Positions 30,112 to 55,809 of a DNA stretch of 64,000 nucleotides are shown in pieces. Within the stretch, counting starts at the first letter, position 1, and each line of letters starts with the position of its first letter. The notes under the pieces are model-generated. The model was not told where the DNA came from, ran no database searches, and worked only from the letters and a program-made list of their open reading frames with translations. Made by a program: the position numbers and the translations under genes. This DNA comes from an uncultured delta proteobacterium (GTDB lineage: Bacteria > Desulfobacterota > Binatia > Binatales > Binataceae): positions 66,335 through 130,334 of the forward strand of contig CAWESZ010000001.1 of NCBI GenBank assembly GCA_963811865.1, given 5' to 3'.

Positions 30112-30181
30112 TGTCCCATCCCGGGAAGAGGACCACGCGCTAAAGTGCGTGCGCTCTCCCGCGTCCCATCGTGATAAACCA

Positions 30182-30210
30182 CAGGTAGACTTAACCTACA
30201 ACGTGGTCAA
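30182..30210 (-). promoter_or_regulatory. Promoter TTGACC-N17-TACCTG with palindrome GTAG-N7-CTAC
   Basis: Same geometry as 32753-32781. Confidence 0.55.
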
Positions 30211-30363
30211 CAGAGGGTGACACGCCTGCGCGGCAGAGGTGCGCAGGAGCCAAATGGACTTGATTGTGCTCTTCAGCGGCGGGCTGGGACAGGCCGGGCT
30301 CAGGCGCGGCGCGGGCCGCAATCCGTAAGCGTATCCCGCGCGCTTAAGGCGGTCGCTCCAACG

Positions 30364-30810: not shown

Positions 30811-30814
30811 GCCG

Positions 30815-33356: not shown

Positions 33357-33623
33357 TGTAAGCACCTCTTCTCGCAGTCGAGCCGCGTGCGGCCGGAGGC
33401 CGCTCAATTCGGACCGGCCGGACCGACATTCCGACCGATACGAAGAGTAGCATTTGCGCGCCGGCCACGCTGATTGGGCGAACCGGTCTGAGCAGCCTGC
33501 GGCGGCCGACCCTCCAATGCTGGACAAATTGCCGGGATCGTTGTACCCGCGATCAGTTGTGCTCATGATCGTGAGTGTCGGCAATCACTTTTGCTCGCCG
33601 CCATGGAGTTCGCCGCACGCGCT

Positions 33624-34550
33624 ATGAAATTCTCGCTCATCCTCGCGACCGTCGGCCGGACGGCTCAACCGGCCTGCTTCCTCGCCGCGCTGGATCGGCA
33701 GATCTATCGCGATTTCGAGCTGATCGTGGTCGATCAGAATCCGGATGATCGACTCGGTCCCATCCTCGAACCATACGCCGGCAAGTTGGAGGTGAGACGA
33801 CTCCGCTCGGCGCCCGGCATTTCGCGCGCGCGCAACGTTGGGCTTGCGGCGGCCAGCGGACAGGTGGTGGGATTCCCGGATGACGATTGCTGGTATCGCG
33901 CGGAATTGCTGGAAGACCTGAACGCAGTCTTCGCGGCGCGGGCGGAACTGGCAGTGGTGTGCGGCCGGATGGTGAATCCGGCCGGACTGCCATGGCGGAG
34001 GATGCCGTCCCGGAGTGCGAGCCTGAACCGGTACAATCTTTTCCGCCGCACGACCTCGGCGGCGATCTTCATCCGCCGGGCGATGTGCGAATCAGTCGGT
34101 CCCTTCGACGAGACGTTCGGCCTCGGCGCAGGCACACCCTGGACGGGCAGCGAGGAACAGGACTACCTGATCCGCGCGCTCAAGCTGGGCGCCGGCGCCG
34201 AGTATTGCACCGACATCGCAATCCATCACAAGGAACCGCTCGCGGCGACCGATCCGGCGACGCTGGCGCGCGAGTACTCCGCGTCGCGCGCGTTCGGACG
34301 GGTGCTCCGCAAGAACCACTATCCTCGCTGGTTCATCGCATATCTTCTGGGTCTCTCCGTTGCGGGTGCGTTGGTCTCCTTGGCGCGCGGCGATCGCGAG
34401 CGAATGCGGCGCTATCGGAGCGGCTTCGAAGCCAAACTGCGGGGATGGCGCGATCGCGGCAATCTCTCGGCGGACCCGTTTGATATGCTCGACGACACGC
34501 CTGATACGCCGGCGCCGGAGCATCGAACGACGCGTGATTCGGTCCCGTGA
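33624..34550 (+). CDS. GT2 family glycosyltransferase
   Basis: FSLILATVGR, ELIVVDQN, ARNVGL, FPDDDCWY, GPFDETFG, EEQDY. Confidence 0.9.
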   Translation: MKFSLILATVGRTAQPACFLAALDRQIYRDFELIVVDQNPDDRLGPILEPYAGKLEVRRLRSAPGISRARNVGLAAASGQVVGFPDDDCWYRAELLEDLNAVFAARAELAVVCGRMVNPAGLPWRRMPSRSASLNRYNLFRRTTSAAIFIRRAMCESVGPFDETFGLGAGTPWTGSEEQDYLIRALKLGAGAEYCTDIAIHHKEPLAATDPATLAREYSASRAFGRVLRKNHYPRWFIAYLLGLSVAGALVSLARGDRERMRRYRSGFEAKLRGWRDRGNLSADPFDMLDDTPDTPAPEHRTTRDSVP

Positions 34551-34826
34551 TGGTGCGCGTCTCGGTTATCATTCCAGTTTACAATGGAGCGGCGACGCCG
34601 GGCTCATTCTTGTCGACCCCGCCGGCGCCGCGCAGAGCTGCATCAGGTTGTTGCGATTGAGTCCGCTGCATCTTTTGGGTTGGCGCTATGCGCGAGCATT
34701 GTTCCGCCCGCGTGCCAGGAAGTTGCCGGCCAGAATTTTCCGGCCGGCGATCACGCCGCGCCGCGGCAAGATCACCGGCACGTGACGCGCGCGCTCGGAG
34801 TTTCCACTAGCCCGGGTTGCATCGAG

Positions 34827-36005
34827 ATGAAGCGCATTTTGATCGTCGGATCCAGGCTCGAACCGCCGGGCGGAGGGGAAGGCCTGCTGGCGTGGATCAT
34901 CGAGGCGCTAAAGCACGACTATCGGCTGAGCGTGTTGACGTGGACTCCAGCCGATCTCGAGGGATTGAACCGGTTTTTTGGGACCGAGCTTTGCGCTTCG
35001 GACGCCGAATTCATGATTATGAACCCGCTGATCCAGGCCATCGCGCAGAAATCGCCGACCACGATGGCTCGGCTCAAGGATCATTATCTAGGCAAGCGCA
35101 GCCGCCGGATCGCAGACCGGTTCGATGCCGTTCTAACCGGCGACAACGAGGGTGACGTCGGCTCACACGGTATCCAATACATCCACTTTCCAAGAATCCT
35201 ACGGAACGGGGCCGCACCTGAGGGTCACTGGTGGTCGGCGCCCGCGATCCGGGCGTATACCGCGATGAGCGACCGCCTGACCGGGGTCTCGTGGGAACGG
35301 ATGCGCAGGAACCTCACGCTGGTGAACTCGGACTTCACGGGACGAAGGGTCCGGGAATTGCACGGCATCGAGACCCTAACGGTATATCCGCCGGCGATCG
35401 GCGAATTTGCGGAGGTGCCTTGGGAGCGGCGCAAGGATGGATTCGTTTGCATCGGGCGCATCGTACCCTACAAGCGGGTCGAGCTGATGATCGAGATTCT
35501 GTCCGCGGTCCGGGCGGGCGGGCCACAAGTGCATCTCCACGTGGTCGGAAAGGCAGAATGGCCCGGCTACGTCGCCTCGATCCGCCGCCTGGTTCAGGCC
35601 AACGCGTCCTGGGTCCATCTGCACGAAGAAATATCGCGCCCGGAGCTTGTCGAGTTGATTGCGAGTCATCGCTACGGCATCCACGCGATGCTTGACGAGC
35701 CCTTCGGCATGGCGGTCGCCGACCTCGTCAGCGCCGGATGCATCACCTTCGTTCCGAACCGCGGCGGGCAGGTCGAGATTGTCGCCAACGACGAGCGTCT
35801 GATTTACTCCTCGCGCGAGGACGCGGTGAACAAGATTCTGCAAGCGATTCGCGAACCGGACTATCAGGCGAGCCTGCGCAATCATATCGCGTCGCGCCGC
35901 AGCTTGTTCGGGGCCGAGCGGTTCGTGAGCCGGATTCGCGAAGTGGTCGGCGACTATCTCCGCGAGCGGCCGGCGGGGGGCGCGGCCCGGGTTGAGTCGA
36001 GATGA
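34827..36005 (+). CDS. GT4 glycosyltransferase, ALG11-like (copy 1)
   Basis: GGGE, QYIHFP, VNSDFT, VYPP, IGRIVPYK, YGIHAMLDEPFGMAVAD...NRGG. Confidence 0.85.
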   Translation: MKRILIVGSRLEPPGGGEGLLAWIIEALKHDYRLSVLTWTPADLEGLNRFFGTELCASDAEFMIMNPLIQAIAQKSPTTMARLKDHYLGKRSRRIADRFDAVLTGDNEGDVGSHGIQYIHFPRILRNGAAPEGHWWSAPAIRAYTAMSDRLTGVSWERMRRNLTLVNSDFTGRRVRELHGIETLTVYPPAIGEFAEVPWERRKDGFVCIGRIVPYKRVELMIEILSAVRAGGPQVHLHVVGKAEWPGYVASIRRLVQANASWVHLHEEISRPELVELIASHRYGIHAMLDEPFGMAVADLVSAGCITFVPNRGGQVEIVANDERLIYSSREDAVNKILQAIREPDYQASLRNHIASRRSLFGAERFVSRIREVVGDYLRERPAGGAARVESR

Positions 36006-37201
36006 AGCGAATTCTGTTCGTCCAGCTCAGGATTGACTCGGTGGGCGGTGCCGAAGGTCTCGCCGCCTGGATTCTCGAGGCCCTCAAGCCCGACTATCGT
36101 CTCACCCTGCTCACTTGGGAGCCGGTGGATTTCGCGGCCCTGAACCGGTTTTTCGGGACCGAGCTTCGACCCTCGGAAGTCGAAGCCACGACCGTCAAGC
36201 CCTGGATAGTGCGGCTGGCGAAGATGCTCCCAACGCCGATGGTCAGGCTCCGATATCTCTATTTGTTTATGCTGGCACGGCGCCAGGCCGAGCGCTTCGA
36301 CGCGGTGATTACGGCCGCTAACGAAGCTGATCTCGGGCCGCGCGGAATTCAGTACGTCCACTTCCCGGAAATGTTGTCGAAAGAAACTGAAGCGCTCCGC
36401 TGGTACCACTCCTCGGCCGCCGTGCGCGCATATGAGGCGATCGGTGAACGCCTGACCGGGTTCTCGATCGACCGGATGAGGCGCAGTCTCACGCTGGCCA
36501 ACTCGGAGTTCACCGCGCGCGCGGTTCGCGAGGCGTTCGGGATCGAGCCACTCGTGGTCTATCCGCCGGCGGTCGGCAAGTTTGCGGACGTTCCCTGGGA
36601 TCAGCGCAAGGACGGCTTCGTATGCATCGGGCGGATCTCCGGTGAGAAACGGATCCAACTCATGATCGAGATTCTCGCCGCGGTGCGGCGGGCCGGGCCG
36701 CAGGTGCATCTCCACGTGGTCGGCAAGCTATTCGACGCCGGCTACCTGGACTCGATCCGGCGCCTGGTTCAGGCCAGCGCGCCTTGGGTCCATCTGCACG
36801 AGAACCTATCGCGCCCCGAGCTCGCCGAGTTGATTTCGCGTCACCGCTACGGGATCCACGCGATGCTTGACGAACCCTTCGGCATGGCGGTCGCCGAGCT
36901 GATCAGTGGCGGCTGCATCACGTTCGTTCCGAACCGGGGCGGGCAGGTCGAGATCGTGGGCAACGACGAGCGTCTGATTTATTCTTCGCGGGAGGACGCA
37001 GTGAACAAGATTCTGCGGGCGCTGCGCGAACCGGACTATCAGGCGAGCCTGCGCAATCATGTCGCGTCGCGGCGCAGCTTGTTCGGGGCCGAGCGGTTCG
37101 CAAACCGGATTCGGGAGGTGGTCGGCGATTATTTTCGGCGCCGTTCGGCGCCGGACGCGAGCGTCTCGGCGCAGCACTCGGCCGCCGCACCGGAACGATG
37201 A
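36002..37201 (+). CDS. GT4 glycosyltransferase, ALG11-like (copy 2)
   Basis: GGAE, QYVHFP, ANSEFT, VYPP, IGRISGEK, YGIHAMLDEPFGMAVAE (EX7E). Confidence 0.85.
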   Translation: MKRILFVQLRIDSVGGAEGLAAWILEALKPDYRLTLLTWEPVDFAALNRFFGTELRPSEVEATTVKPWIVRLAKMLPTPMVRLRYLYLFMLARRQAERFDAVITAANEADLGPRGIQYVHFPEMLSKETEALRWYHSSAAVRAYEAIGERLTGFSIDRMRRSLTLANSEFTARAVREAFGIEPLVVYPPAVGKFADVPWDQRKDGFVCIGRISGEKRIQLMIEILAAVRRAGPQVHLHVVGKLFDAGYLDSIRRLVQASAPWVHLHENLSRPELAELISRHRYGIHAMLDEPFGMAVAELISGGCITFVPNRGGQVEIVGNDERLIYSSREDAVNKILRALREPDYQASLRNHVASRRSLFGAERFANRIREVVGDYFRRRSAPDASVSAQHSAAAPER

Positions 37202-38404
37202 AACGCATTCTATTCGTTCAACCGACGCTGAGCCCGCCGGGTGGCGGCAATGGGCTCGCAGCCTGGATGATGGAGGCGCTGAAGCACGAATATCGCATGT
37301 CGATGCTCGCGTGGAGCCCTACCGATCTGGCTGCCGTCAATCGGTTTTTCGGTACCGACCTCCACCCCGCCGATTTTGAGCTTCACCTCATAGAACCCTG
37401 GATAGTGCGTCTGGCGGAGATGTCGCCGACCCCGATGAATCTGCTCAAGGACCACTATCTTTCCCAGCGGTGCCGTCGAATCGTCGACGCGTTCGAGGCC
37501 GCGATCGGCGCCAATAATGAAGCCGACCTCGGCCCTTGCGGCGTTCAGTACGTACACTTCCCGAAGTTTCTCATCGACCGTCCCGACATCGACTTGCGCT
37601 GGTGGCACCGCGTCACCGCTTTGGCAGTCCCGATGTACCACCGACTGAGTGAGCGTCTGACCGGATTCTCCGCCGCCCGGATGCGGCGAAACCTCACTTT
37701 GGTAAATTCGGACTTCACCGGACGGCGTTTCCGTGCGGTGCACGGCATCGAGGCAGTCACTCTGTATCCGCCGGCGGTCGGCCTATTTCGGGACGTGCCA
37801 TGGGAAGAGCGTAAGGACGGGTTCGTTTGTATCGGCCGATTTTCCGGGGAAAAACGGATCGAGCTGATGATCGATATTGTATCGGCGGTGCGTCAGGCCG
37901 GGCCGAAAGTTCATCTGCACGTAGTGGGCAGCCGGGACTGGGACCTCGAGTACTTCGAGAAGATTCGCGCTCTGGCCAAGGCCAACGCGTCATGGGTCTC
38001 TATCCACGAGAACCTTCCACGACCGGAGACTCCTTGACCTGATTGCCACTCACCGCTTCGGCATCCATGGGATGCACGAAGAACCCTTCGGCATGGCCGT
38101 AGCCGACCTCGTAAGTGCCGGTTGCATCACCTTCGTCCCCAACAGCGGGGGGCAGGTGGAGATCGTGGCCGACGAGCGGCTGGTATATTCGTCGCTTCCG
38201 GAAGCGGTGGACAAAATCGTCAGAGCGATTCGCGATCCGGAGTATCAGATGAGCCTGCGCAGCCACGTCGGAACCCGCAAGAGTCTGTTTCGTTCAGAAA
38301 AGTTTGCGGCGCGCCTGCGGAGCATAGTCGAAGATTTTCTCGGCCAGCGGACGGGGGGCGCGTCCAGGCGGCACTTAGACGCTGCGCCGGGCGCTGGAGA
38401 GTGA
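37198..38404 (+). CDS. GT4 glycosyltransferase, ALG11-like (copy 3; frameshift near 38030)
   Basis: ORFs 37198-38037 and 38072-38404 join through RPE/LLDLIATHRFGIHGMHEEPFGMAVAD...NSGG. Confidence 0.82.
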
Positions 38405-39565: not shown

Positions 39566-40915
39566 CTAGGGTTCGGGAGGGCCAGAAGGAGACCTCGCGC
39601 CGGCTTCCGCCACGCGGCGCCAGAGGCAGCCGAGGGCCTGGCCGAACCGCTGCGCCGCGTGGCCCAGCCGCCCCGCTCGCAGCTCGTCCATGCCGCGCCC
39701 GAACTGCTGCCGCGCGTCCAGCGGGCGTTGCACCTCGGAGAGCAGGCGCGCTCGTAGCGCGACGTCGTCGGGTGCGGTCACCAGTTGAACCATCAGGCGC
39801 CCCCACGGGTCGAAGCCCCGCTCGAAGTCCAGGAAGACGAGGCCCCGCCGGGTCCGCACGACCTGCAGGTCGCACACGACACGAAGCGGCAGGCCCGCGA
39901 GCGGTCCGTCGCGCAGGCAAAGGTCGCCGATGCGCCGGATCTCCAGGCACTCGCGGCCCGTGAAGTGCTTCCGCCGCCAGTAAAAATGCACCACCGGGCC
40001 GGCGAAGAGCTCGGGATCGTAAGGATAGACGAAGCCATGCTCGGGCGAGACTTCCAGCCACGTGGAGGCCGCGAACGGCTGCGTGCGCACGAACCGCTGT
40101 ACCTCCTCCTCCACGCGGAGCACGTCCGGGTGCGCCCGCGGTCCGCGGTACGCCTTGGCCCAGAACCGCTCTTCCGTCTCCTCGCGCTGCAGCAGGTGGA
40201 ACACCACTTCGGGACAGAGGTCGCCGATGCCGGCGCCAAAGGGGATTGGCTGGTCGTCCTCGCCCTGCACCTCGATCAGCCGCTTGTCCTCGGGGTTGGT
40301 GGCGACCGTGCGGCGGTATGTCGCCAGCGGCCGATAGCGGTAGGCCGGCTCGAGCGGACCCACCAGCTTGAAAAGGGTCCGCCGGCCGCCTTGGTACGGA
40401 TACGTGGCGAGGACGCGCCGCCAGCGCGCCGCGGAGAAAAGCTCGTTCCACATCGCGTGATCGCTGGGCCAGAGCTGGCCCATCAGGTGGCGCCACGGCC
40501 AGAGGTCGGGCTCCGTGAGCGAGCCCATGTCCACCATCACCACCGGCGCCCGGGCCAGAAGCTGCGCGACCAGTCGCTGCACGAACCCGGCTCCGCGCAC
40601 GAGCAAGTGGTGCGCGACGTTCAGCAGCAGCACCGCGTCGGTCGCGGGCAGCGCCGCCGGATCCAGGGTCAAGAGGTCCGCGCAGCGCAGTTCCAGCCCC
40701 GGGTGACCGGCGGCAGATGGCGGATGCCGGTCGTAGCCGATGGCGTGCGCGGCGTGGCCGCTCTCCAGCAGCGCCAGCGAGATGCGCGCATCGTTACAGC
40801 CCAAGTCGAGGACGCGAGAGCCGCGGGGAAGGACTTGCCGGATCGCGCCGAGTCGGGCCGCGAGCGCCTGCGTGGCGCTGGGAAGCCCGTAGTAATCCTG
40901 CGGGAACTGGTCCAT
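39566..40915 (-). CDS. Methyltransferase plus kinase-like fusion protein (WbdD-like architecture), copy A
   Basis: N-terminal RVLDLGCN..., LLLNVAHH; C-terminal FWAK, DLQVV...GLVFLDFE; helical tail. Confidence 0.6.
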   Translation of the reverse strand: MDQFPQDYYGLPSATQALAARLGAIRQVLPRGSRVLDLGCNDARISLALLESGHAAHAIGYDRHPPSAAGHPGLELRCADLLTLDPAALPATDAVLLLNVAHHLLVRGAGFVQRLVAQLLARAPVVMVDMGSLTEPDLWPWRHLMGQLWPSDHAMWNELFSAARWRRVLATYPYQGGRRTLFKLVGPLEPAYRYRPLATYRRTVATNPEDKRLIEVQGEDDQPIPFGAGIGDLCPEVVFHLLQREETEERFWAKAYRGPRAHPDVLRVEEEVQRFVRTQPFAASTWLEVSPEHGFVYPYDPELFAGPVVHFYWRRKHFTGRECLEIRRIGDLCLRDGPLAGLPLRVVCDLQVVRTRRGLVFLDFERGFDPWGRLMVQLVTAPDDVALRARLLSEVQRPLDARQQFGRGMDELRAGRLGHAAQRFGQALGCLWRRVAEAGARSPSGPPEP

Positions 40916-41179: not shown

Positions 41180-42520
41180 TCAGGGACCAGGTTGGCAATA
41201 TTGTTCAGGCGTAGGTTCTCGGCGCCGGAGGTTGCCGAGGGCTTGACCGAACCAGTGCGCCGCGTGGCGCAGCCGCCCGGCTCGCAGCTCGTCCACGCCG
41301 CGCCCGAACCGCTGCCGCGTGTCCACCAGCCGCTGCACCTCGGAGAGCAGGCGCGCCCGTAGCGCGACATCGTCGGGTGCGGTCACCAGTTGAACCACCA
41401 AGTCGCCCCACGGGGTGTGCTTCCGCTCCCAGTCCAGGAAAACGAGGCCCAGCCCGGTCCGCACCACCTGCACGTCGACCACGAAGCCCAGCGGCAGTCC
41501 CGCGAGTGGTCCGTTGCGCAGGCAGAGGTCGCCGATGCGCCGGATCTCCAGGCACTCGCGGGCCGTGAAGTATCTCCGCCGCCAGTAGAAATGCACGACC
41601 GGGCCGGCGAAGAGCTCGGGATCGTAGGGGTACACGAAACCATGCTCCGGCGAGACCTCCAGCCAGGTGGAGGCCGCGAACGGCTGCGTGCGCACGAACT
41701 GCTGCACCTCCTCTTCCACTCGGACCGCGTCCGGGTGCGCCCGTTGTCCGCAGTATGCTTTGGCCCAGAACCGCTCTTCGGTCTCCTCGCGCTGCAGCAG
41801 GTGGTACATCACATCGCGACGGAGGTCGCCAAACCCGGGCCCGAATGGGACGGGCTGGTCGTCCTCGCCCTGCACCTCGACCAGCCGCTTGTCCTCGGGA
41901 CGGTTGCCCCTTATGCGGCGGTACGTCGCCAGCCGCCGATAGTGGTAGGCCGGCTCCAGCGAACCCACCAGCTTGAAGAGCGTGCGCCAGCCGCCCTGGT
42001 ACGGATAAGTGACGAGGGCGCGCCGCCAGCGCGCCGCGGCGAAGAGCTCGTTCCACATAGCGTGGTCGTTGGGCCAGAACTGGCCCATCAGGTGGCGCCA
42101 CGGCCAGAGGTCGGGCTCCGTGAGCGAGCCCATGTCGACGAACACCACCGGCGCCCGGGCCACAAGCTGCGCGACGAGCCGCTGCACGAACCCGGCTCCA
42201 CGCACGAGCAGGTGGTGCGCGACGTTCAGCAGCAGCACCGCGTCGGCCGCGGGCAGCGCCGCCGGATCCAGGGTCAAGAGGTTCGCGCAGCTCAGCTCCA
42301 GCCCCGAGTGGCCGGCGGCAGATGGCGGCTGGCGGTCACAGCCGACGGCCTGTACGGTATGGCCGCTGTCCAGCAGCCCCTGGGAGATGCGCGGATCGTT
42401 GCAGCCCAGGTCCAGGATGCGAGAGCCGCGCGGAAGGACTTGCCGGATCGCGCCGAGGCGGGCCGGAAGCGCCTCCGTGGCACTGGGAGGCCCGTCGTAA
42501 TCGTGCAGGAACTGGTCCAT
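41180..42520 (-). CDS. Methyltransferase plus kinase-like fusion protein, copy B (tandem paralogue)
   Basis: Colinear with 39566-40915; RILDLGCN, FWAK, DVQVV...GLVFLDWE. Confidence 0.6.
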   Translation of the reverse strand: MDQFLHDYDGPPSATEALPARLGAIRQVLPRGSRILDLGCNDPRISQGLLDSGHTVQAVGCDRQPPSAAGHSGLELSCANLLTLDPAALPAADAVLLLNVAHHLLVRGAGFVQRLVAQLVARAPVVFVDMGSLTEPDLWPWRHLMGQFWPNDHAMWNELFAAARWRRALVTYPYQGGWRTLFKLVGSLEPAYHYRRLATYRRIRGNRPEDKRLVEVQGEDDQPVPFGPGFGDLRRDVMYHLLQREETEERFWAKAYCGQRAHPDAVRVEEEVQQFVRTQPFAASTWLEVSPEHGFVYPYDPELFAGPVVHFYWRRRYFTARECLEIRRIGDLCLRNGPLAGLPLGFVVDVQVVRTGLGLVFLDWERKHTPWGDLVVQLVTAPDDVALRARLLSEVQRLVDTRQRFGRGVDELRAGRLRHAAHWFGQALGNLRRREPTPEQYCQPGP

Positions 42521-44526: not shown

Positions 44527-46711
44527 ATGCCCAAGCTTGGGCATAATGCCGACGGCCCCCGAGGAGTCTGGAACAGGCTTCTCTCGGACCGCGGCGGGTT
44601 CGCCGAACTGGCGATCTATCTTCTACTTTCCATCCTGTTCTTTGGGCGCGGCCTGATCGGGCACTTGGCAACCTTCAATCTGGGTCAGAGCAAGGATTCC
44701 GGGCTTTTACATGTGGTGCCTGCTCTGGCTCCCCTACGCGATCAGCCATCGGATAAATCCATTCTTCACCGATTTGATTTGGGCGCCGGGCGGCGTCAGT
44801 CTCGCTTGGACGACCTTCATACCGCTGGTGGCTCTGGCCGCGTACCCGATGACCGCGACGTTAGGACCGATCGTAACCTACAACATTCTATGCCTGATCG
44901 CCCCGGCGCTCGCGGGCTGGAGCACATTCATCCTTTGCCGCTACCTCACAAAGCGTTACTGGCCGTCGCTGGTTGGCGGCTATCTCTTCGGTTTCTCGCC
45001 GTACATGGCCGGCCAGATGAACACTCATCTGGTCCTGGTGCTGATCTTCCCGATTCCGCTCGCGGCGTATCTGGTCGTGCGGCGGGCCAACAGCGAGCTC
45101 GGACGGCGCCCGTTCGCGATCCTGCTGGCGCTGGTGCTGGTGGCGCAGTTCCTGATCGCGCTGGAAACCTTCGCGACCATGACCTTCTTTGGCGGGGTCG
45201 CGATGCTGCTGGCCCTGGCGATCGCAAAGGGCGAACTCAGGCGGCGAGTGTACTCGACACTTCAAGATGTAGCGGTGGCCTACGGGCTGGTCGCGATCGT
45301 CCTGAGTCCCTATTTCTACTATCTGTTCGCATTCGGAGTCCCGAGCGGATCTCCCTACCCGACCGATATCTTTTCCGCCGATCTGCTGAACTTTCTGATA
45401 CCCACGCCCGCAAATCTGGCGGGCCAGCTCGACTGGTTCGCCAGAATCACGGGCGAATTCACCGGCAACCTCGGTGAAGCCACCGCCTACCTGAGCCCGG
45501 GCCTGGTCTTTATCGCCGCGGCGTTCGCGTATTCGCACCGGCGGGATTTCAGCGGAGCGCTGCTCGCCGGATGGCTGCTGATCATCTGCGTGGCCTCGAT
45601 GGGAGTCGTGCTCCACGTCGACGGGCAGAAGATGCTACCGCTGCCGTGGGCACTGGTTTCCCATTTGCCGCTTATCGACAAGGCTCTGCCGGCGCGATTC
45701 ACTCTGTTCGCTTTTCTGGATCTGGCCGTGATCGCCGCGCTGTGGCTCAGCGACGCGCCCCCGCACTCGATCTTCCGGCCGGCGGTGATACTCGCGACGA
45801 TCCTCCTGATGCTGCCCAACCTGGATGCGCGGGCGTGGGTGAATCCGGTCGATCTCCCGGTCTTCTTTTCCAGCGGGCTCTACCGTCAGTACCTGCGGGA
45901 AGGCGAGCTGGTGCTGCTCCTGCCGACCGAGGGCAACGACAGCATGCTGTGGCAGGCGGCGTCGGGAATGTACTTCCGTATGGCCGACGGCTACGTCGGG
46001 CCCGATCCGGTCGGCTTTACGCGCTGGGAGCCGAAAGAGGGCCGTGCTCTGCTGCCCTTCCTTGCCAGCCACGACATTACCGCGATCGTGTTGTGCAACC
46101 AGTACTGGAACTCCGGTAGATTTTTCGGCCCCCTCTCGTTTGAGTTGGTTCCAACCTCCGCGACGCTTTGGAGGCCGTACCTGTCGCCATTGAAGGTCGA
46201 TCCGGTCCGCGCCGGCGATGTGCTTGTCTATCGGATTCCAACTGAGGTCCTCGCGCAGTACAAACCTGCCGGTAGCTGCTCCCCAGCCGCCGATGCGGCA
46301 CTGAGGGCCGGCGCTGAGACCCCGATATGCAGTTTCTCGGCGACACCCCCGGCTAAAGACCGGCCTTGGCACGCCTTCATGGAGTGGCACGCCGTCGTGG
46401 CGAATCGGGGTTCGGAACTGGGCAGAATCCGTTGCACGATCGGCAACGGAACCAACGACCTTGTGACCGCCGAAACCTTTCTGTTCGGCAACGAAACACG
46501 TACCTGGCATCTGACCGCGAGCGCATCGCGTGCCGGGGCGGCGTTTAGGAAAAATATGGCGCAGCAGTGGACCTGGAGGTGCGAGGCCGATCGGAACCTC
46601 ACAATCCTTCCAACGCGTTCTTCATCTGAAATCTCCAACATCGCTCTCAGTTTCCGGACAGGCGACTGGTCCCCTACTTCGGCGCTCCACAGGCGCGATT
46701 CCGATTTCTGA
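44527..46711 (+). CDS. Multi-TM GT-C-fold glycosyltransferase-like membrane protein (frameshift near 44705)
   Basis: First TM, then D..(Y)MWCL.W...NPFFTD.IWAPGGVSLAW, GGYLFGFSPY, SADLLNFLIP, LPARF, SMLWQA. Confidence 0.7.
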
Positions 46712-46954: not shown

Positions 46955-48736
46955 TCAGCCGGCGGAGCGCGTTTCGCCTGCGGTCGCCATCCGGCGGAAT
47001 TCGTCAACGTCGCGCATCAATTCGTCGTAGCGGCCGCACGCGCGGATTCGGCCGTCGGCGATGAAGACCAGCCGATCGCAATGCCGGACCGTGGCCAGGC
47101 GATGCGCGATTACGAGCAGGGTCTTGCGGCCCTGCAGCGACTCGATTGCGCCCGTGACGTCGGCCTCGGTGGCCTGGTCGAGCGCGGAGGTAGCCTCGTC
47201 GAATACCAGCAGGTCGGGATCGTGATAGAGGGCGCGGGCGATTCCGACGCGTTGCCGTTCGCCGCCGGAGAAGCGCACGCCGCGTTCACCGACCACGGTG
47301 TCGAGGCCGGCCGGCAGCGTGGCGATCAACTGCTCGAGTTGCACCATCCGGACCACCGCGCGCACGCGCTCAAGGCTGATCTCGGCGTCGGCGAGGCCGA
47401 ACGCAATGTTGCGGGTCAGGCTGTCGTCGAGCAGAAAGATCGATTGCGACACGTAACCGACGCGATGCTTCCAGGCGAACCGCCGATCGGACAGGTCCTG
47501 CCCGTCGATCAGGATGCGCCCGGATGTGGGTCGCAGCAGTCCGACCAGCAGGTCGGCGAGCGTGCTCTTGCCCGCGCCGGTGGGTCCGACGACCCCGATT
47601 GATTCGCCGCGCCGAATCGTCAGCGCGATCTCATGCAACACCGGATGCTCAGCCTCGGCGTAGGCAAACGACACGCGCTCGAATTCGATCGCGGTGTGGA
47701 GCATCACCGCATGGCCGTCATCACCGTTCGCGGGGCCGCGCTCGAGGTCGGCGATGAGCAGATAGTCGTCGTGGAGCTTGGTGGCCGAACGCGCGGCGCC
47801 GCGGATCTGGTTGACCCGCCACGCGATCCGGTTGACGGATGGAACGATCCGGAACGCGGCATAGGAGAACAGCGCCAGCAGCGGCAGCCCTTCGCTGCGG
47901 ACCGCGCCCTTAGCGCTCAGCAGCGCGATCACTACCAGCGCTCCGCCCACGAACAGGGTCTCGGTGAACAGCGGCGCGCTGGCCTCCATGGTTTTGGCGA
48001 GGTATCCGAGTTTCAGGATGCCGCGCAGCTTCTGCTCGAGTGCGCCGGCAAAAAACTCCTCGCCGCCGAACACCTTGATCTCCTTTACGCCGCCGAAGGC
48101 TTGCTGGAGATCGCGCAAGAATCCCCGCGACAACTGGTCCTGTCCGTGTCCATAGCGATCGGCCATCGTGCGCGTGAGGCGCAGCAGCAAGGCGAGTCCG
48201 CCGCCCAGAAGGCATCCGGCGATCAGGGTGATCTTCGGCGCGGTATACAGCAGCACCGCGGCGATGCTTGCGGCGGCCAGAATTTCCGACGCCACGGAAA
48301 CCGCCGCCGACATCCCTTGCTCGCAGACCCGGTCCACCGCGGTGTCCACGTTCCAGATCAGGTCGGCGGAGTTGCGGCGCAGATGGAAGGGGTAGGGCAT
48401 CGCGAGATAACCCCTCATCATCCGACTTTTGAGCGCGACCACTGACTCGCCCACGACCTTGTGGCTGAAGTATTCCATGCCCAGCGCAAACAGGTTCTTG
48501 ACCAGATAGAAAAGCGCGACCAGTCCGGTCAACGCGACAGTCTGGGCCTGGGCGCTATGCCACGGCAGGATCGCTGCGATCCTTGAAACGACCGGCAGGC
48601 GTGCAATCGCGGGCGGGTCGCTCATGATCTTGATCAGCGCGAACACCGCCGCGGCGGCGACCGCCTCAAGCGTGCCGCGCAAGAACGCGATCGGTGTGAG
48701 TATCGCCCACCGCCACCGGATCGCGCCGGGCAACAT
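46955..48736 (-). CDS. ABC transporter TMD-NBD fusion, PglK/WlaB-like putative LLO flippase
   Basis: PY.FHLRRNSADL, GGVKEIK, AAFRIVPS, Walker A GPTGAGKST, GERGVRFSGGERQR, FDEATSALD, IAHRL. Confidence 0.85.
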   Translation of the reverse strand: MLPGAIRWRWAILTPIAFLRGTLEAVAAAAVFALIKIMSDPPAIARLPVVSRIAAILPWHSAQAQTVALTGLVALFYLVKNLFALGMEYFSHKVVGESVVALKSRMMRGYLAMPYPFHLRRNSADLIWNVDTAVDRVCEQGMSAAVSVASEILAAASIAAVLLYTAPKITLIAGCLLGGGLALLLRLTRTMADRYGHGQDQLSRGFLRDLQQAFGGVKEIKVFGGEEFFAGALEQKLRGILKLGYLAKTMEASAPLFTETLFVGGALVVIALLSAKGAVRSEGLPLLALFSYAAFRIVPSVNRIAWRVNQIRGAARSATKLHDDYLLIADLERGPANGDDGHAVMLHTAIEFERVSFAYAEAEHPVLHEIALTIRRGESIGVVGPTGAGKSTLADLLVGLLRPTSGRILIDGQDLSDRRFAWKHRVGYVSQSIFLLDDSLTRNIAFGLADAEISLERVRAVVRMVQLEQLIATLPAGLDTVVGERGVRFSGGERQRVGIARALYHDPDLLVFDEATSALDQATEADVTGAIESLQGRKTLLVIAHRLATVRHCDRLVFIADGRIRACGRYDELMRDVDEFRRMATAGETRSAG

Positions 48737-48801: not shown

Positions 48802-50016
48802 CTACTCAAGTCCGATCCTCCGGGAGTTGCTAACCGTTTCCTCGACGATCGATTCGAGTTGCGTGCCGAAGGCCGCTTTCGAGAACTTCCCGGCTACGTG
48901 CTCCCGGCCGGCCCGGCCCATCCGCTCGGCTCTCGCCGGGTCGCTCGCCAGGATGGCGAGGGCGGCGGCAAAGGCGCTGGGCTGGGGCGGACAGAGAAAG
49001 CCGGTAATTCCGTCGATGATAGTCTCCGCCGGTCCGCCGTTGTTGACTGCTACCACCGCCCTTGAAGCCGCCATTGCTTCCAGCGGACCGTAGCCGAAAT
49101 GCTCATACTCAGGGGTATAGACCACGCACCGGCAGCGGGAAAGGAGGTCCCGCAACTCGCGATCGTCCGGCGAGGGCCGAAAGACCACCTGCGCCGCCAC
49201 TGCGCGGCTCCGGGCCAGCGCTTCGAGCTCGCGCAGCGTGCGGGTGGGCTCGGCCGCGCGCGGATCCAGGCCGCCGGCGATCACCAATCGCAGCCGAGTG
49301 AAGATCGCCGGGGGAAGGGCACGCTCGAGCGCGGCCAGCGCCTCGATCGCGAGCCCCACGTTCTTTCTGGAATCGAAGCGGCCGATCGAGAGCATCGTAA
49401 TCGTAGCATCGTCCGCGCCGTCGCCATTGCGTGCCAGGCTGGCGACCTCGACCCCGGGGTAAAGCAGTTGCGGAACGCCCAGGCGCGGGAAAGTGCGCGC
49501 CATCACCGACGCGGTGAAGCGGCTGTTCGCGAGCACCCGATCGGCCATCCCGGTGGAGACTTTTTCCGACCAGTCGATCGGGGCGCGATACCAGCGGTAG
49601 AGACCGCCGCGCTGCGGGGCGAGCAACTGGTCGGGGAAGTGGCAGTAGAAAATGATCCTGGCCCGCGTCATCAGCCGCAGTATCGGAATCGATTGCGATA
49701 CCACGTCGGCGAAGATCACGTCGAAACGGTCGCGGCTCAGCGCCAGACGCGAGGCCGCGTAGCACGCCCGGCCGATATTGCACGGCGCCAGCAGCCGGCC
49801 CGCGATTTGAAGCGGCAGGAAGTCTCCGTAGGCGCGGACGTCGAGGCTGCCGTCGCGGGCGCGCTCGAAACAATGCTCGCGGTCCAGATGCGAGGTGACA
49901 ATCGTGACGCGATGGCCGGCCTGCTGAAGACAGCTTGCGGCGTCGAGCACCAGGCGCTCGGCTCCGCCCACCCCGAGTTGGGGATGGACGAACCCGATCC
50001 GCAATGAGCGTCTCAT
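48802..50016 (-). CDS. alg2: ALG2-like alpha-1,3/1,6-mannosyltransferase (GT4)
   Basis: FVHPQLGVGGAERLVLDAA, HCF, GDFLP, IFYCHFPD, YRAPIDW.E..TGMAD, NSRFT, LVIAGG.D, VYTP..EHFGYGPLEAM, AVNNGGP.ET, TGFLC, colinear with eukaryotic ALG2 motifs as recalled. Confidence 0.88.
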   Translation of the reverse strand: MRRSLRIGFVHPQLGVGGAERLVLDAASCLQQAGHRVTIVTSHLDREHCFERARDGSLDVRAYGDFLPLQIAGRLLAPCNIGRACYAASRLALSRDRFDVIFADVVSQSIPILRLMTRARIIFYCHFPDQLLAPQRGGLYRWYRAPIDWSEKVSTGMADRVLANSRFTASVMARTFPRLGVPQLLYPGVEVASLARNGDGADDATITMLSIGRFDSRKNVGLAIEALAALERALPPAIFTRLRLVIAGGLDPRAAEPTRTLRELEALARSRAVAAQVVFRPSPDDRELRDLLSRCRCVVYTPEYEHFGYGPLEAMAASRAVVAVNNGGPAETIIDGITGFLCPPQPSAFAAALAILASDPARAERMGRAGREHVAGKFSKAAFGTQLESIVEETVSNSRRIGLE

Positions 50017-51279: not shown

Positions 51280-51519
51280 GTGGATCGGGCGGCGACTTGA
51301 GGCGCGCAAAGCTCACGGCCGTTTCGCTGCCTTCCCGTTGATAAGGTTCGCGGCCGATCGTGTCAACCGCCCTCGAATCGCGCGCGCCCTTGCGGTAGAT
51401 CCATCCTTTGGGGTACCAGAGTCTTCGAAACTTCCCTTACAATGGCGCTGTTTAGCCTATTCGATTCGGATTGTGCACGGCGAGGCGGAGAGATCTTGGA
51501 GATGGGGATCCGGCGATGA

Positions 51520-52812
51520 GTGCGCGCGAACCCTATGGTGGCGCGGTCTTCCTTCGTGAGTAAGGTTTCCATTCAGGATCCTCGCGCCTTGACTGCCCGG
51601 CAGTCCGCGGCGGCGCAGATTGCAGAAACCTCGCCGCATCGCGACGGCGTGTTCCATGCGTCCAACGGCGCCGGCCGCAACCAGGCTTCGTCTGGCGTCG
51701 CCCACCCCCGGCGGATCGCAATCGCGGTCGGTGGCACCGCCGGCCACACCTACCCGGGACTTGCGCTTGCCGAGAACTACGTCGCGGCGAGCAATCGCGT
51801 GCAGATCCTGATCTTCGGACGTGAGGACAGTCTCGAGTCGCACGCCGCCAGCCGCGGCGGCTACCGGTTCGCGGCGATCGCGGCCTCGCCGATGCTGCGT
51901 GAGCGAATCTCGGGAAAGGCGCGTGCGCTGGCGAATCTCACCGCCGGCTTCGTTCGCGCCCGGGCGATCCTCAAGGCTGAGCAGATCGACCTTGCGATCG
52001 GCTTCGGCGGTTACGCTTGTGCGGGAACCCTGCTGGCAGCGCGCTCGCTCGGCCTGCGCACGGTCATCCACGAGTCCAATCCGGCTCCGGGTCTCACCAA
52101 CCGGATCCTCGGCCGGCTGGCCGACCGGATCTGCGTCGCATTTGAGGAAGCCGGCAAGATGTTTCCCCCAGCGCGCACGGCGGTGACCGGCACTCCCACT
52201 CGCGAAGAGATCACAAGACTGGCCCGCGAGCCGCGCGGCGCTCCGGGCCCCGATCGTTCTGCGCGAATTCTGGTCACCGGCGGCTCGCTGGGCTCGGCGT
52301 TTCTCAACGATCACGCGCCGCGCCTGCTTGGGCTCGTTCGGCAGAGCGTCCCGGGGCTGGAGGTGCTGCATCAGACCGGGCATCAGACCGGCCACGACCA
52401 GGCGGACCGGGTACTCGCCGAGTACGCTGGCCGGGGCGTGACGGCGCGCACCGCGCAATATCTTGAGGACATGGCCGAAGCCTACCGATGGGCCGATTTC
52501 GTGATCTCGTGCGCGGGAGCGACCACGCTTGCCGAGCTTGCGTTCACGGGCCTGCCCGCGCTGGTGGTTCCGCTGCGTTCGGCCGCCCGCAATCATCAGT
52601 TTGATGCCGCCCGCGCCTTTTCCGCCCGGACCGGAGCCCGCTGGTCGGCTGAAGAGGCTTGGAACCCGGAAGATCTCGCCGCGGACATCGCGTCGGTGCT
52701 GCGCGATGGCGAGGTCTGGATGGCCGCATCGAATCGCATTCGGAGTTTCGCTACTCCGGGCGCCGCTATGGCCGTGATCGCCCGCTGCGAGGCGTTGCTG
52801 AACGGCGCCTGA
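51520..52812 (+). CDS. murG: MurG-like GT28 UDP-GlcNAc:lipid-PP-sugar transferase, outside a dcw cluster
   Basis: GGTAGH.YP, GFGGY, HESN..PGLTNR, TGGSLG, ADFVISCAGATTLAEL, HQ. True start probably downstream of 51520. Confidence 0.85.
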   Translation: MRANPMVARSSFVSKVSIQDPRALTARQSAAAQIAETSPHRDGVFHASNGAGRNQASSGVAHPRRIAIAVGGTAGHTYPGLALAENYVAASNRVQILIFGREDSLESHAASRGGYRFAAIAASPMLRERISGKARALANLTAGFVRARAILKAEQIDLAIGFGGYACAGTLLAARSLGLRTVIHESNPAPGLTNRILGRLADRICVAFEEAGKMFPPARTAVTGTPTREEITRLAREPRGAPGPDRSARILVTGGSLGSAFLNDHAPRLLGLVRQSVPGLEVLHQTGHQTGHDQADRVLAEYAGRGVTARTAQYLEDMAEAYRWADFVISCAGATTLAELAFTGLPALVVPLRSAARNHQFDAARAFSARTGARWSAEEAWNPEDLAADIASVLRDGEVWMAASNRIRSFATPGAAMAVIARCEALLNGA

Positions 52813-52851: not shown

Positions 52852-55809
52852 TCACGTGCCGGGTGAGGGCGCGGCGGGTTTCGGGTTCGTGCCTCCGCTG
52901 CTCGATCTCCCCAGGTCCGGCCAGTTGATCTTCCACGTGGTCACGGTTTCGCCGTTGATCACGGTGGCCTCGTAGACCTTGGTGAAGAGCGTGCTGTAGA
53001 CCCCGTCGAGCAGCGCCAGCCGCGTGAAGGCGGAGCGGATCAGATTCGATGGGCCGACCAGGGCCTTCGATTGCGCCGGGTCCACCATCACGGCCAAGTC
53101 CTGGTCAGTCGGAGAATCCACCGGATGCTCGGCGATCTCCTTGTCGCCTGCGATCAGCACCGTCGCAGGTGTTCCTTCGCGCTCCTGAACCTTGCCGTCT
53201 TCGGACAGAAAACGAATTTTCAGCGTGGTCCCGGTGTCGCGATAGACGAGGCCGGTCACCGTCGCGCTCTGAGATAGTGGCAGGTTGGCAGTGCAATCCA
53301 GCTCGCCGCTGGTGAGACTGTCGCACGGAATCCATCCGCCACGGAGGGTCTCTGCCGGCGCGATGAAGCGTTGTGCGTCTTCCTGCGAGTGCAGGCCGCG
53401 CACCTGTTGAAAGAGCGCGCGCGCGTCCGCCGGCGGCATCCCGAAGCGAGCGGCCAGATCATCAACCGCGGCGGCTTCCGGTATCGAGCGGTCGTTCTGA
53501 TAAGCATAAGCGCGGCGGAAATCCCAGTCGCCGAGCTCAGCCCACTTCGAGTGCTCCATTTTGGTCGAAAGAATCAGGTACGCGGGCGGCGCGTCGCAAT
53601 GGCTCGAAGCCAGCACGCTGGTCTGCGCTGCCTCGCTCAGCCCAGCGAGCGCCAGGCGCTCCCTGGCGGCGGCCAAGTCCAGGCCCGCGATCTCCTGCAC
53701 CATCGATTGAGCCGCTACCGGATCGAGACCCTGCGCGATCAATTTGCCGTAGGCTCCCATTTTGCCCTCAGGCTCGGGCGTCGCGTCCGATCCGCAATCG
53801 AGCATCCGCAGCACGCCCACCGCCTGGTTGTCATTCGGCGCCAGCAGCGCGCGCGACAGCCAGTACGGTATGTGCGTCGACAGCGAGCCGCCGTCCGCCG
53901 CGACGCGCCGCTCCGCCGCGTACTTGATCCAGTATCCATAATCCCACCACGCGTTGATGATCGCGTTGGGCGGGCTCTGCTCGCGCAAGTCCTGCAGCGT
54001 CGTCCACCAGGCCTGGTTGATGACGGGCATGTAGTTGCGCGCCTCCAGATAGCCGGCTTCGGCGGGCACAATTATCCACGCGGCCAGCACCACGAAGACC
54101 GCGGCGCTCACCGGCGCGGCGTAGCGGGTTTGGCGCTCACGAATGAGCCGGTCGATCCATCGATGCGTGCGGCCGGGGATCGCGCCGAATGCGATCGCAA
54201 AAGGCGCGGCGAGCAGCATCAGGAAACGCTCGGCCGAAAAGCCCACGTACAGCGCGGCGCAAAACCAGGCGGTCACAATCAACGCCGCGCTCCGATCCTC
54301 TTCCCGCGGATCGGCATTCGGCATCAGATCGATCAGGATGGCCACCGCGATGGGCGCACCGATCAGCGCCGGAAGTTGCCAATTGTTCGTGAACGAGGCG
54401 GTCAGGCCATGCCGATAAAGACCCGCCGCGCCGATCAGCAGGGCGAACTCCCACCACCTCCAGCGCCGGTTCGGGAGCGCCAACAGCAGCAGACCCAGAC
54501 CGCCCGCGAGCAACACCCACTCGCCGCCCATCCAGCGGGCTGGGTCGCTGCTCTTGAGCTCGGCGACGATCGACAAACTGCCCGGCCACACCCTTTCGCG
54601 GGGCGGACTCGCAGGCGTGCCCACAACCACGTTCGGCCTGGCCGGGTGAATGTGCAGCGCCGCAGAAATCGGTCCCGCAATACTTCGGGCGGTCGCGAAG
54701 TACGAGGCACCGGCCAGCGAGGTCGTAATCCACGCCGAAAAGTAGAAGACGGCGACCACCACCGCCGCGCGCCGGACTCCGGCTCGCGATGAAGTCTCCG
54801 CGCGTGCCTTGCGCAGCGCCAGCTTGATCGACTCGAAGAGCAGGTTCGCGAGCAGCGCGATCATCAGGACGCCATAGGTGAACGGCCATCCACTCCATGA
54901 GGCGGCGTGCAGGCCGGCGAACACCGCGCCCAGCATCGCGTAGGCGATCGATCGCCGCGACGACCGCGCAGCCGACGCCTCGATCAACGCCCAGACCATG
55001 AACAGCGGGAGGACGACATTCCAGACGTTGTCGTCGCTCCCCAGGCTCCGCATCAGGAAGAGCGGGTTGAGCCCCACCACGATCGCGGCGCAGAGACCGC
55101 CCAAATTGCCCGCGACCCGGCGCCCGATCGCGAAGGCGGGAAGCACCCCGAGCATCCCGATCAACACCGGCACCAGGAAGGAGCCGGCGGGAATCGGAAA
55201 CCCGGGTCTGAACAGAGCGATCAGGCGGTTGAGCGCGATAATCGCGGCGATATGCAGTGACCGGTGATAAACGTTGGTCCGGCCGACCTGCGCGTTGGTG
55301 TAGGTGTCGCGGCAGACGCCGTCCACGACGCGATCGCAGGTCGTTCCGGTGTGCAGATAGTTGCGGGCCATTCGCAGCCAGTGATAGCTGTCGTAGTCGC
55401 CCAGGAAGACATACTCGCGGCCGTCATCGCCGGTATAGCGGAATTCCGACGCGAGCCGGTCGACCATCTCGCGGTCCCACTTCTGGTATTCGTCGGGATG
55501 CTCCTTAATCCACTCGCTCACCGTTTGATCGATCGTGGCGCGCCGCTGCGGAATGTCAGCCGGCACTTGCGCGTTGACTTCGGCGGTGATCCTTTCATGC
55601 AGCCGGACCGCGGCCCGGCTCTCGGCGCCGCCCAGAGCGAGGGGCAACAGCCGCACCCATCCGACCAGCGCCATCGCGCCGATTAGCAAGCCGATGCGAA
55701 TGATACGATCGGGCGTGCCGGTTTCGCGAAGCCGTTGGTGCGCAGCGGCAAACCGGGATGGAGAGCGGCCAGCGGTGGGAGGATTCTCAGCGGCGGGATT
55801 TCCACTCAT
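52852..55809 (-). CDS. stt3: STT3/AglB/PglB oligosaccharyltransferase
   Basis: GDYDSYHWLR, many TMs, RSLGSDDN, IVAEL, ERF, WWDYGYW, ADGG. Confidence 0.9.
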   Translation of the reverse strand: MSGNPAAENPPTAGRSPSRFAAAHQRLRETGTPDRIIRIGLLIGAMALVGWVRLLPLALGGAESRAAVRLHERITAEVNAQVPADIPQRRATIDQTVSEWIKEHPDEYQKWDREMVDRLASEFRYTGDDGREYVFLGDYDSYHWLRMARNYLHTGTTCDRVVDGVCRDTYTNAQVGRTNVYHRSLHIAAIIALNRLIALFRPGFPIPAGSFLVPVLIGMLGVLPAFAIGRRVAGNLGGLCAAIVVGLNPLFLMRSLGSDDNVWNVVLPLFMVWALIEASAARSSRRSIAYAMLGAVFAGLHAASWSGWPFTYGVLMIALLANLLFESIKLALRKARAETSSRAGVRRAAVVVAVFYFSAWITTSLAGASYFATARSIAGPISAALHIHPARPNVVVGTPASPPRERVWPGSLSIVAELKSSDPARWMGGEWVLLAGGLGLLLLALPNRRWRWWEFALLIGAAGLYRHGLTASFTNNWQLPALIGAPIAVAILIDLMPNADPREEDRSAALIVTAWFCAALYVGFSAERFLMLLAAPFAIAFGAIPGRTHRWIDRLIRERQTRYAAPVSAAVFVVLAAWIIVPAEAGYLEARNYMPVINQAWWTTLQDLREQSPPNAIINAWWDYGYWIKYAAERRVAADGGSLSTHIPYWLSRALLAPNDNQAVGVLRMLDCGSDATPEPEGKMGAYGKLIAQGLDPVAAQSMVQEIAGLDLAAARERLALAGLSEAAQTSVLASSHCDAPPAYLILSTKMEHSKWAELGDWDFRRAYAYQNDRSIPEAAAVDDLAARFGMPPADARALFQQVRGLHSQEDAQRFIAPAETLRGGWIPCDSLTSGELDCTANLPLSQSATVTGLVYRDTGTTLKIRFLSEDGKVQEREGTPATVLIAGDKEIAEHPVDSPTDQDLAVMVDPAQSKALVGPSNLIRSAFTRLALLDGVYSTLFTKVYEATVINGETVTTWKINWPDLGRSSSGGTNPKPAAPSPGT

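Follow-up and report, generated by a model that had tools for sequence, protein, structure and literature searches.

The 64,000-nucleotide stretch analysed here, referred to below as the window, comes from the genome of an uncultured delta proteobacterium of the class Binatia (GenBank assembly GCA_963811865.1, contig CAWESZ010000001.1, positions 66,335 to 130,334). On its minus strand, at 48802..50016, lies an open reading frame (ORF) of 404 codons that encodes an ALG2-like glycosyltransferase of family GT4 (P0001), a predicted alpha-1,3/alpha-1,6-mannosyltransferase. An ALG1-like gene (P0002, 50035..51309, minus strand; predicted beta-1,4-mannosyltransferase) and a gene for an ABC exporter (46955..48736, minus strand) stand on either side of it. 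Beyond the ALG1-like gene lie a divergent paralogue of MurG (51520..52812, plus strand) and a gene for an oligosaccharyltransferase of the STT3/AglB/PglB family (52852..55809, minus strand). The transferase, the exporter and the three glycosyltransferases are found within 9 kb. The first-pass annotation of this DNA had called the ORF a homologue of eukaryotic ALG2, and this has held up: full-length alignment, reciprocal best hits, motifs and trees agree. Judged by its sequence, the ORF is a true bacterial member of the ALG2 family.

The codon-position GC contents of the ORF (0.69, 0.51 and 0.81) fit a real gene of a 65% GC genome, which is also the GC content of the contig. Pfam recognises the domains Glyco_transf_4 and Glycos_transf_1, the two halves of a GT4 enzyme; an NCBIfam scan of the protein gave zero models above cut-off. 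A phmmer search of 1.84 billion representative proteins returned 779 matches at E<=1e-30, the best 150 of which span 1e-129 to 6e-70, and names were checked for 30 of these 150. Eleven of the 30 have named eukaryotic sources, with E values from 6.5e-100 to about 1e-73 and 40-49% identity over nearly the whole length. Six of the 11 are named ALG2, from Riccia fluitans (6.5e-100, 46%), Chlorella vulgaris (1.9e-90, 49%), Pilobolus, Dimargaris, Schizosaccharomyces octosporus and Trichuris. No such name is attached to the five others, which are transcriptome ORFs (Cantina, Vermistella, Pygsuia and two MMETSP transcripts). The remaining 19 are metagenome proteins, some carrying the JGI name alpha-1,3/alpha-1,6-mannosyltransferase and several nameless; one of them clusters with a Candidatus Binatia protein. 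Among the 120 closest relatives listed, 45 are named by JGI as ALG2 type, and those NCBI entries that have a name belong to Candidatus Binatus or Binatia. BLASTP aligned the query to Riccia ALG2 at 44% identity over 409 columns (E 4e-123) and to fission-yeast Alg2 at 39%. When Riccia ALG2 was searched back against the window's own genome, the ALG2-like ORF was the best match at 4.5e-104 and the next followed at 7.7e-12, making the two proteins reciprocal best hits; the next GT4 paralogue to the query itself in this genome is found at 7.7e-24. In a protein-language-model atlas, eukaryotic ALG2 clusters rank second and third for the query. A sequence search of the PDB found generic GT4 enzymes as the nearest entries and no ALG2 structure.

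All four motifs that the first-pass annotation had quoted as following eukaryotic ALG2 are present in the translation: HPQLGVGGAERLVLDAA (residues 11-27), FYCHFPD (residues 123-129), YRAPIDWSEKVSTGMAD (residues 143-159) and YTPEYEHFGYGPLEAM (residues 300-315). The ALG2 signatures defined in the main text of a recent preprint by Xu et al. are GIGGAER and EHFGIVPLE (bioRxiv 10.1101/2025.10.15.682550). The glycine-rich loop of the query reads GVGGAER (residues 15-21); GxGGAER occurs in all 11 named eukaryotic proteins, one of which likewise has valine at the variable position. The EX7E motif of the query is EHFGYGPLE (residues 305-313), with both glutamates kept. E305 and E313 are invariant in an alignment of 40 bacterial and eukaryotic ALG2 sequences, and the query keeps all 29 columns that are invariant over that set. 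The first-pass annotation was also right that the protein lacks the C-terminal hydrophobic tail of eukaryotic ALG2, since a Kyte-Doolittle test found none in the query. The same test, however, found such a tail in only 4 of the 11 named eukaryotic ALG2 proteins and none in the other 7, so that its absence here is not unusual and does not separate the bacterial protein from them. A hydrophobic stretch near residue 80 is weaker in the query than in eukaryotic ALG2. The AlphaFold (AF2) model, built from a 40-row alignment, has a mean confidence (pLDDT) of 91.8 and a GT-B fold. Foldseek placed it among generic retaining GT4 enzymes such as GlgM, MshA, BshA, PglA and PimB', with no ALG2 structure found in the PDB copy searched; the fold thus confirms GT4/GT-B and gives no specificity.

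Two trees were built. The FastTree analysis had 132 rows, namely 125 representatives (those shorter than 370 or longer than 530 residues were dropped) and seven other GT4 proteins of the same genome. A quick IQ-TREE search used 45 chosen rows, 38 of ALG2 type and seven outgroup GT4 proteins. These seven GT4 proteins formed the outgroup, without ALG11 rows as a second one. In both trees the query falls with bacterial and eukaryotic ALG2, and the seven other GT4 enzymes sit outside on long branches (support 94 and 84); the grouping that had been proposed as a check on the ALG2 assignment is therefore recovered. Within the FastTree topology the five eukaryotic rows that were named first fall in a single 68-row clade (support 96), and four rows later named as eukaryotic fall in the enclosing 82-row clade (support 94). 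The query lies among Binatia-type rows, outside the clade that holds the eukaryotic rows. The IQ-TREE topology places all 11 eukaryotic rows in a single clade (SH-aLRT 87) amid several bacterial lineages. Deep branches are weakly supported, and we therefore draw no conclusion on the direction of gene donation. An identity of 44-49% to plant and algal ALG2 is high across domains and might be taken to mean that the gene is not native and either was acquired recently from a eukaryote or entered the assembly as eukaryotic contamination. We regard this as extremely improbable: the gene has native codon-position GC, its contig is bacterial at 65% GC and its operon is tight and bacterial, the eukaryotic rows form one clade among bacterial lineages, and several Binatia genomes, as well as one genome labelled as Acidobacteria, have relatives at 48-84% identity in this same cluster.

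The ALG1-like gene has Pfam GT4-type domains and occurs once in the genome. Its true start is likely the ATG at 51279, which gives a protein of 414 residues, because its relatives are 398-414 residues long. JGI names many of the 120 listed relatives beta-1,4-mannosyltransferase, and no eukaryotic source names appear among these 120. The atlas neighbours include clusters of the eukaryotic chitobiosyldiphosphodolichol beta-mannosyltransferase (ALG1, family GT33), and the protein has a DLPMK block that we take to resemble eukaryotic ALG1; a PDB search with it found no relative. A predicted complex of the ALG1-like and ALG2-like proteins, each supplied with an alignment, scored 0.00, which is no answer and evidence neither way. 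The exporter is a half-transporter of 593 residues (Pfam ABC_membrane and ABC_tran) and a candidate flippase for a lipid-linked oligosaccharide. Its NCBIfam matches are to MsbA (1.8e-82) and PglK (1.2e-71), both under cut-off, and its PDB matches are to PglK (6.8e-60) and MsbA (1.3e-54).

These three genes are closely spaced on one strand. The ALG1-like stop lies 18 bp before the ALG2-like ATG, the exporter starts 65 bp after the ALG2-like stop, and neither gap contains a terminator-like site. Scans for sigma-70 promoters and for terminators gave counts at the level of shuffled sequence. A search of sequencing runs found nine soil metagenome DNA runs with small word shares and no RNA run. The order of ALG1-like gene, ALG2-like gene and exporter, which the first-pass annotation had read as mirroring the order of the reactions, is confirmed. 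It recurs in six of the nine sampled class genomes with an ALG2-like gene and in related loci, where the ABC gene again comes after the ALG genes. The three genes form a conserved unit that is probably co-transcribed.

The MurG paralogue (GT28; Pfam Glyco_transf_28 N- and C-terminal domains) is 430 residues long as called, with an uncertain start, and is a candidate maker of chitobiose (GlcNAc-beta-1,4-GlcNAc). It scores 245.8 bits with the MurG model TIGR01133 against a cut-off of 250.25. The genome's own MurG, encoded beside FtsW, scores 280.9 bits and is 31% identical to the paralogue. The paralogue is transcribed divergently from the ALG1-like gene and is kept beside it in relatives. An ORF on the opposite strand (minus, 51457-52596) overlaps the GT28 gene; it is arginine-rich, has no family match and was rejected as a gene. 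In the cell-division cluster of this genome, the MraY gene (G000:C2:49424-49982) is matched in two pieces with one in-frame TGA, which may be a frameshift or a sequencing error.

Convergent with the MurG paralogue is the transferase gene, which encodes 985 residues with Pfam domains STT3 (86 bits, cut-off 24.5) and STT3-PglB_core. The protein is closer to the archaeal STT3 model of NCBIfam (1.3e-14) than to the PglB model (4.1e-4), and its WWDYGYW sequence, which contains the WWDYG motif, aligns to that of Pyrococcus AglB. D138, D140, D259, E417, D623 and G625, together with WDxGY, are invariant in all seven orthologues compared, and we take the acidic residues to correspond to the catalytic residues of PglB and Stt3. 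The STT3 membrane domain, WWDYG and conserved acidic residues that mark the STT3 family are thus all present. In a Foldseek search with a low-confidence model of the transferase, all 19 matches at E<=0.001 were oligosaccharyltransferases. With the MurG paralogue and an STT3-type transferase adjoining, the reading of the ORF as part of an ALG2 pathway becomes stronger.

To see how far this arrangement is conserved, 13 related loci from species genomes were compared. The transferase, MurG paralogue, ALG1-like, ALG2-like and ABC genes occur together in L010, L012, L014, L015 and L016, except that the L014 contig ends before any ABC gene. L013 and L018 have the transferase, ALG2-like and ABC genes, with a WecA-like gene directly before the transferase in L013. 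The Acidobacteria-labelled genome (L017) has ALG1-like, MurG-paralogue, WecA-like, accessory GT4 and ALG2-like genes. Five further loci (L031-L035, from G214, G205, G160, G234 and G143) have no ALG2-like gene and hold a WecA-like gene, the transferase, the ALG1-like gene and an accessory GT4 gene of a family that we call fam1; the MurG paralogue is present in three of the five and an ABC gene in four, directly after the ALG1-like gene in three of those four. From such clusters it follows that ALG2 is an optional part, slotted in between ALG1 and the exporter. Predicted fusions in metagenomes join ALG1-like to ALG2-like sequence (P0396, P0156, P0132) and WecA-like to ALG2-like sequence (P0198). 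Among the predicted fusions (these four and P0199) is also one of part of a transferase to ALG2-like sequence; they may be genuine fusions or separate genes that were called as one. On a 7.4-kb contig labelled as Terriglobales (L019), an ABC gene is 89.6% identical to the exporter of the window, which suggests a contig of Binatia origin that ended up in the bin of an Acidobacteria genome.

Frequencies within the class were taken from an evenly drawn sample of 121 genomes, of which 18 carry the ALG1-like gene, 17 carry the transferase and 9 carry the ALG2-like gene (called at E<=1e-60). All nine ALG2-like genomes hold an ALG1-like gene, immediately upstream in six, and seven of the nine have the transferase. 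The ALG1-like gene is present in 16 of the 17 transferase genomes, no more than 7 kb from the transferase in 12 of the 16, and just 1 of the 103 sampled genomes without an ALG1-like gene has the transferase. Across a phylum-wide sample the ALG2-like gene was found in 2 of 151 genomes.

The family membership, gene order, cluster conservation and gene co-occurrence described so far are observed. As the whole that best explains them, we think it likely that the ORF is a bacterial ALG2 that uses GDP-mannose in a predicted N-glycosylation pathway encoded by this cluster. A WecA-like phosphotransferase, unlinked here and within the cluster in relatives, would put GlcNAc-1-phosphate on the lipid, to which the adjoining MurG paralogue would add a second GlcNAc. 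The ALG1-like enzyme would then add a beta-mannose, giving Man-beta-1,4-GlcNAc2-PP-polyprenol as the acceptor for the ALG2-like enzyme. This would add an alpha-1,3 and then an alpha-1,6 branching mannose, most likely from GDP-mannose; a search for the supply of this donor with TIGR01479 gave matches below cut-off only. By analogy with the enzymology of other bacterial homologues, the product would be Man3GlcNAc2 (bioRxiv 10.1101/2025.10.15.682550). The uncharacterised GT4 family may add more sugars. The ABC exporter would move the finished lipid-linked glycan to the periplasmic face, where the STT3-family oligosaccharyltransferase would transfer it to asparagine of exported proteins. Given an ALG2-like gene beside an ALG1-like gene, a lipid exporter, a MurG-like gene and an oligosaccharyltransferase, this soil-dwelling Binatia bacterium probably attaches a eukaryote-like mannose-chitobiose glycan to proteins.

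Several observations weigh against this interpretation. No WecA-like initiating gene is present in the window, the nearest and best one being on contig C5, and the genome is 75% complete. The transferase model has a pLDDT of 62.6 and was built from a seven-row alignment, so that its confidence is low. The ALG1 assignment is predicted from source names, language-model neighbours and the main text of the preprint rather than from an alignment with eukaryotic ALG1. The ALG2-like gene is absent from 9 of the 18 sampled ALG1-like genomes, so the pathway works without it and the product need not be a eukaryotic core. Two genomes, G038 and G252, have both ALG-like genes and no match to the query transferase, and in the L009 genome about 1 Mb separates the ALG2-like gene from the paired transferase and ALG1-like genes. 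Such cases are what one might see if the ALG-like genes built a lipid-linked oligosaccharide for a surface polysaccharide, a lipopolysaccharide-like glycolipid or an S-layer glycan, with the STT3-family enzyme serving another acceptor or being loosely linked. WecA, MurG-like enzymes, GT4 enzymes and MsbA-like exporters are common parts of bacterial envelope glycan pathways. The genome, moreover, has 34 matches to the PMT_2 GT-C family (31 above cut-off), an unusually large set of lipid-sugar-dependent glycosyltransferases which argues that it makes many lipid-linked glycans. Nevertheless, we consider a surface glycan unlikely as the main role, given the near-exclusive and mostly close association of the transferase with the ALG1-like gene in the class sample and the conservation of its acidic residues and WWDYG in all seven orthologues.

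A second set of points against a fully active ALG2 comes from the EX7E motif. Its sixth position, a conserved valine in the ALG2 consensus, is glycine in the query; the 11 named eukaryotic proteins have valine in 10 cases and threonine in one. The main text of the preprint reports that changing this valine to alanine lowers, without abolishing, the activity of human and bacterial ALG2, which makes the glycine of the query a real caveat, and that alanine or glycine at this site is typical of inactive archaeal homologues (bioRxiv 10.1101/2025.10.15.682550). Bacterial homologues also vary in vitro, two of the four assayed there being strong, one weak and one inactive. The protein might thus belong to ALG2 by descent and have changed or reduced activity through drift at this position, adding a single mannose or using another linkage, sugar or acceptor; that the gene is optional in the cluster would agree with this. 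The same glycine, however, is found in 14 of the 120 listed near relatives (relatives at 70-83% identity retain valine), which suggests that the change is tolerated and is not a sign of decay. The gene is intact and in its operon position, and the protein keeps the glycine-rich loop, both glutamates and all 29 invariant columns. On balance, a changed or impaired activity seems to us quite improbable, and we retain the assignment of the ORF as an ALG2 acting after the ALG1-like enzyme.

Previous work bears on individual steps. Xu et al. found that three of four bacterial ALG2 homologues made Man2- and Man3-GlcNAc2 from Man1GlcNAc2-PP-phytanyl, and that three of five ALG1 homologues from bacteria, a Binatia protein among them, both produced Man1GlcNAc2 and complemented yeast alg1; no functional ALG1 or ALG2 relatives were found in archaea (main text of bioRxiv 10.1101/2025.10.15.682550). 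The ALG2-like gene described here is a further member of this family, whose bacterial homologues had thus already been shown to be active. The query may even be identical or near-identical to one of the proteins assayed there, and the supplementary tables of the preprint may list proteins from clusters like this one. Its authors argue from enzymology that ALG1 and ALG2 are of bacterial origin and leave their role in bacteria unsaid; the words operon, gene cluster and STT3 do not occur in the main text, which names a flippase only for eukaryotic RFT1. In the account of Lombard 2016 (PMC4973528), the origin of ALG1 was called unknown, ALG1 being without known prokaryotic relatives at that time, and Alg13/14 were found most similar to bacterial proteins. 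Our searches of the literature turned up no account of ALG1/ALG2 genes clustered natively with a transferase in bacteria.

Compared with eukaryotic ALG2 of the dolichol pathway (CAZy GT4), the query shares 39-49% identity over the full length, GxGGAER, both EX7E glutamates, the FYCHFPD and YRxPxD blocks and a GT-B fold, and its predicted step likewise comes directly after an ALG1-type enzyme. It differs in being encoded in a bacterial operon, in having Tyr-Gly in EX7E where eukaryotic proteins have Ile-Val, and presumably in its carrier, which would be a bacterial polyprenol rather than dolichol. Unlike in the eukaryotic pathway, no counterpart of ALG11 was recognised, the accompanying GT4 family being generically named. 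The bacterial ALG2 homologues of the preprint, from Gammaproteobacteria and Polyangia, and its Binatia ALG1 are the same kind of protein, with uncultured hosts, the same two motifs and the same expected reactions (main text of bioRxiv 10.1101/2025.10.15.682550). The present locus links them, at the level of the genome, with a transferase, an ABC exporter and a MurG paralogue, and its protein differs from them in having glycine at the valine site.

The proposed pathway also resembles known prokaryotic systems. The pgl system of Campylobacter (PglB, PglK, PglC and PglA/H/I/J) has cytoplasmic assembly by GT4 enzymes, flipping by an ABC half-transporter and transfer by a single-subunit STT3-family enzyme with WWDYG, all of which are here predicted from genes. 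In contrast to pgl, the predicted glycan is based on GlcNAc2-Man rather than bacillosamine and would be assembled by relatives of ALG1 and ALG2 and a MurG paralogue, and the 985-residue Binatia transferase resembles PglB only distantly. Those archaeal Agl pathways that have a chitobiose core, such as Sulfolobus AglH/Agl24/AglB (eLife 2022, PMC8993221), likewise start from a GlcNAc2-lipid and end with a single-subunit transferase. Unlike in those pathways, the second GlcNAc would come here from a bacterial MurG paralogue and the mannoses from ALG1 and ALG2 relatives.

Conserved clustering of these enzymes with an oligosaccharyltransferase, a flippase and a candidate chitobiose synthase derived from MurG predicts bacterial N-glycosylation with a eukaryote-type core; a bacterium that itself puts such a core on proteins would be new for bacterial N-glycosylation and, if confirmed, would show a third kind of its chemistry. 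A wider generalisation is possible, although we are inclined to doubt it slightly: that N-glycosylation of exported proteins with a eukaryotic GlcNAc2-Man core, Man3 where ALG2 is present, is native to the Binatia and to certain other uncultured bacteria of soil, and that one cluster encodes the whole assembly line (WecA-like enzyme, MurG paralogue, ALG1, ALG2, ABC flippase and STT3-type transferase). If true, the cluster would be a living bacterial counterpart, and possibly a source, of the eukaryotic cytosolic ALG13/14-ALG1-ALG2 module. The origin of eukaryotic N-glycosylation is an open question. To the part of it that concerns the bacterial role of ALG1 and ALG2 the locus offers a testable answer, and studies of eukaryogenesis would, if it is confirmed, gain a concrete candidate donor pathway. 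It would, in addition, supply a soluble or peripheral bacterial enzyme set for making Man3GlcNAc2 glycoproteins in E. coli. The presence of ALG2 in half of the sampled ALG1-bearing genomes indicates that the pathway is modular.

Further glycosyltransferase genes lie about 9 kb from the ALG cluster. The uncharacterised GT4 family fam1 (Pfam Glycos_transf_1), located by tblastn with the fam1 genes of related loci, is present in three tandem copies at 34584..38404 on the plus strand. The tblastn match to the third copy is split between two frames (37198-38037 and 38072-38404, plus strand), and the break near 38030-38070 reflects a frameshift or else an error in the assembly. Directly upstream of the fam1 genes is a GT2 glycosyltransferase gene (33591..34550, plus strand; Pfam Glycos_transf_2 at 8.7e-18, weak NCBIfam matches), whose membership in the pathway is uncertain. 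Elsewhere, fam1 adjoins the cluster in L009, L010, L012, L014, L015, L017 and L031-L035. We considered fam1 as a counterpart of ALG11 and did not adopt this assignment, as its relatives are generically named and it is joined to ALG2 by a very long branch. In L009 and several metagenome proteins a methyltransferase domain is fused to the fam1 GT4 enzyme, which hints at methylated sugars.

Between the fam1 genes and the ALG cluster, on the minus strand, are two paralogues of 449 and 446 residues with weak methyltransferase matches (39566-40915 and 41180-42520). A 666-residue gene with a good coding signal and no Pfam match (44711-46711, plus strand) is convergent with the ABC exporter and was not seen beside the cluster in related loci. 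One of the PMT_2 matches falls in the window near the transferase, at 57798-59420 on the minus strand. The glycosylation region as a whole is flanked by TadE/G-like pilus assembly genes and a gene for a large NHL-repeat protein (28777-32595, minus strand, and 61335-64000, plus strand).

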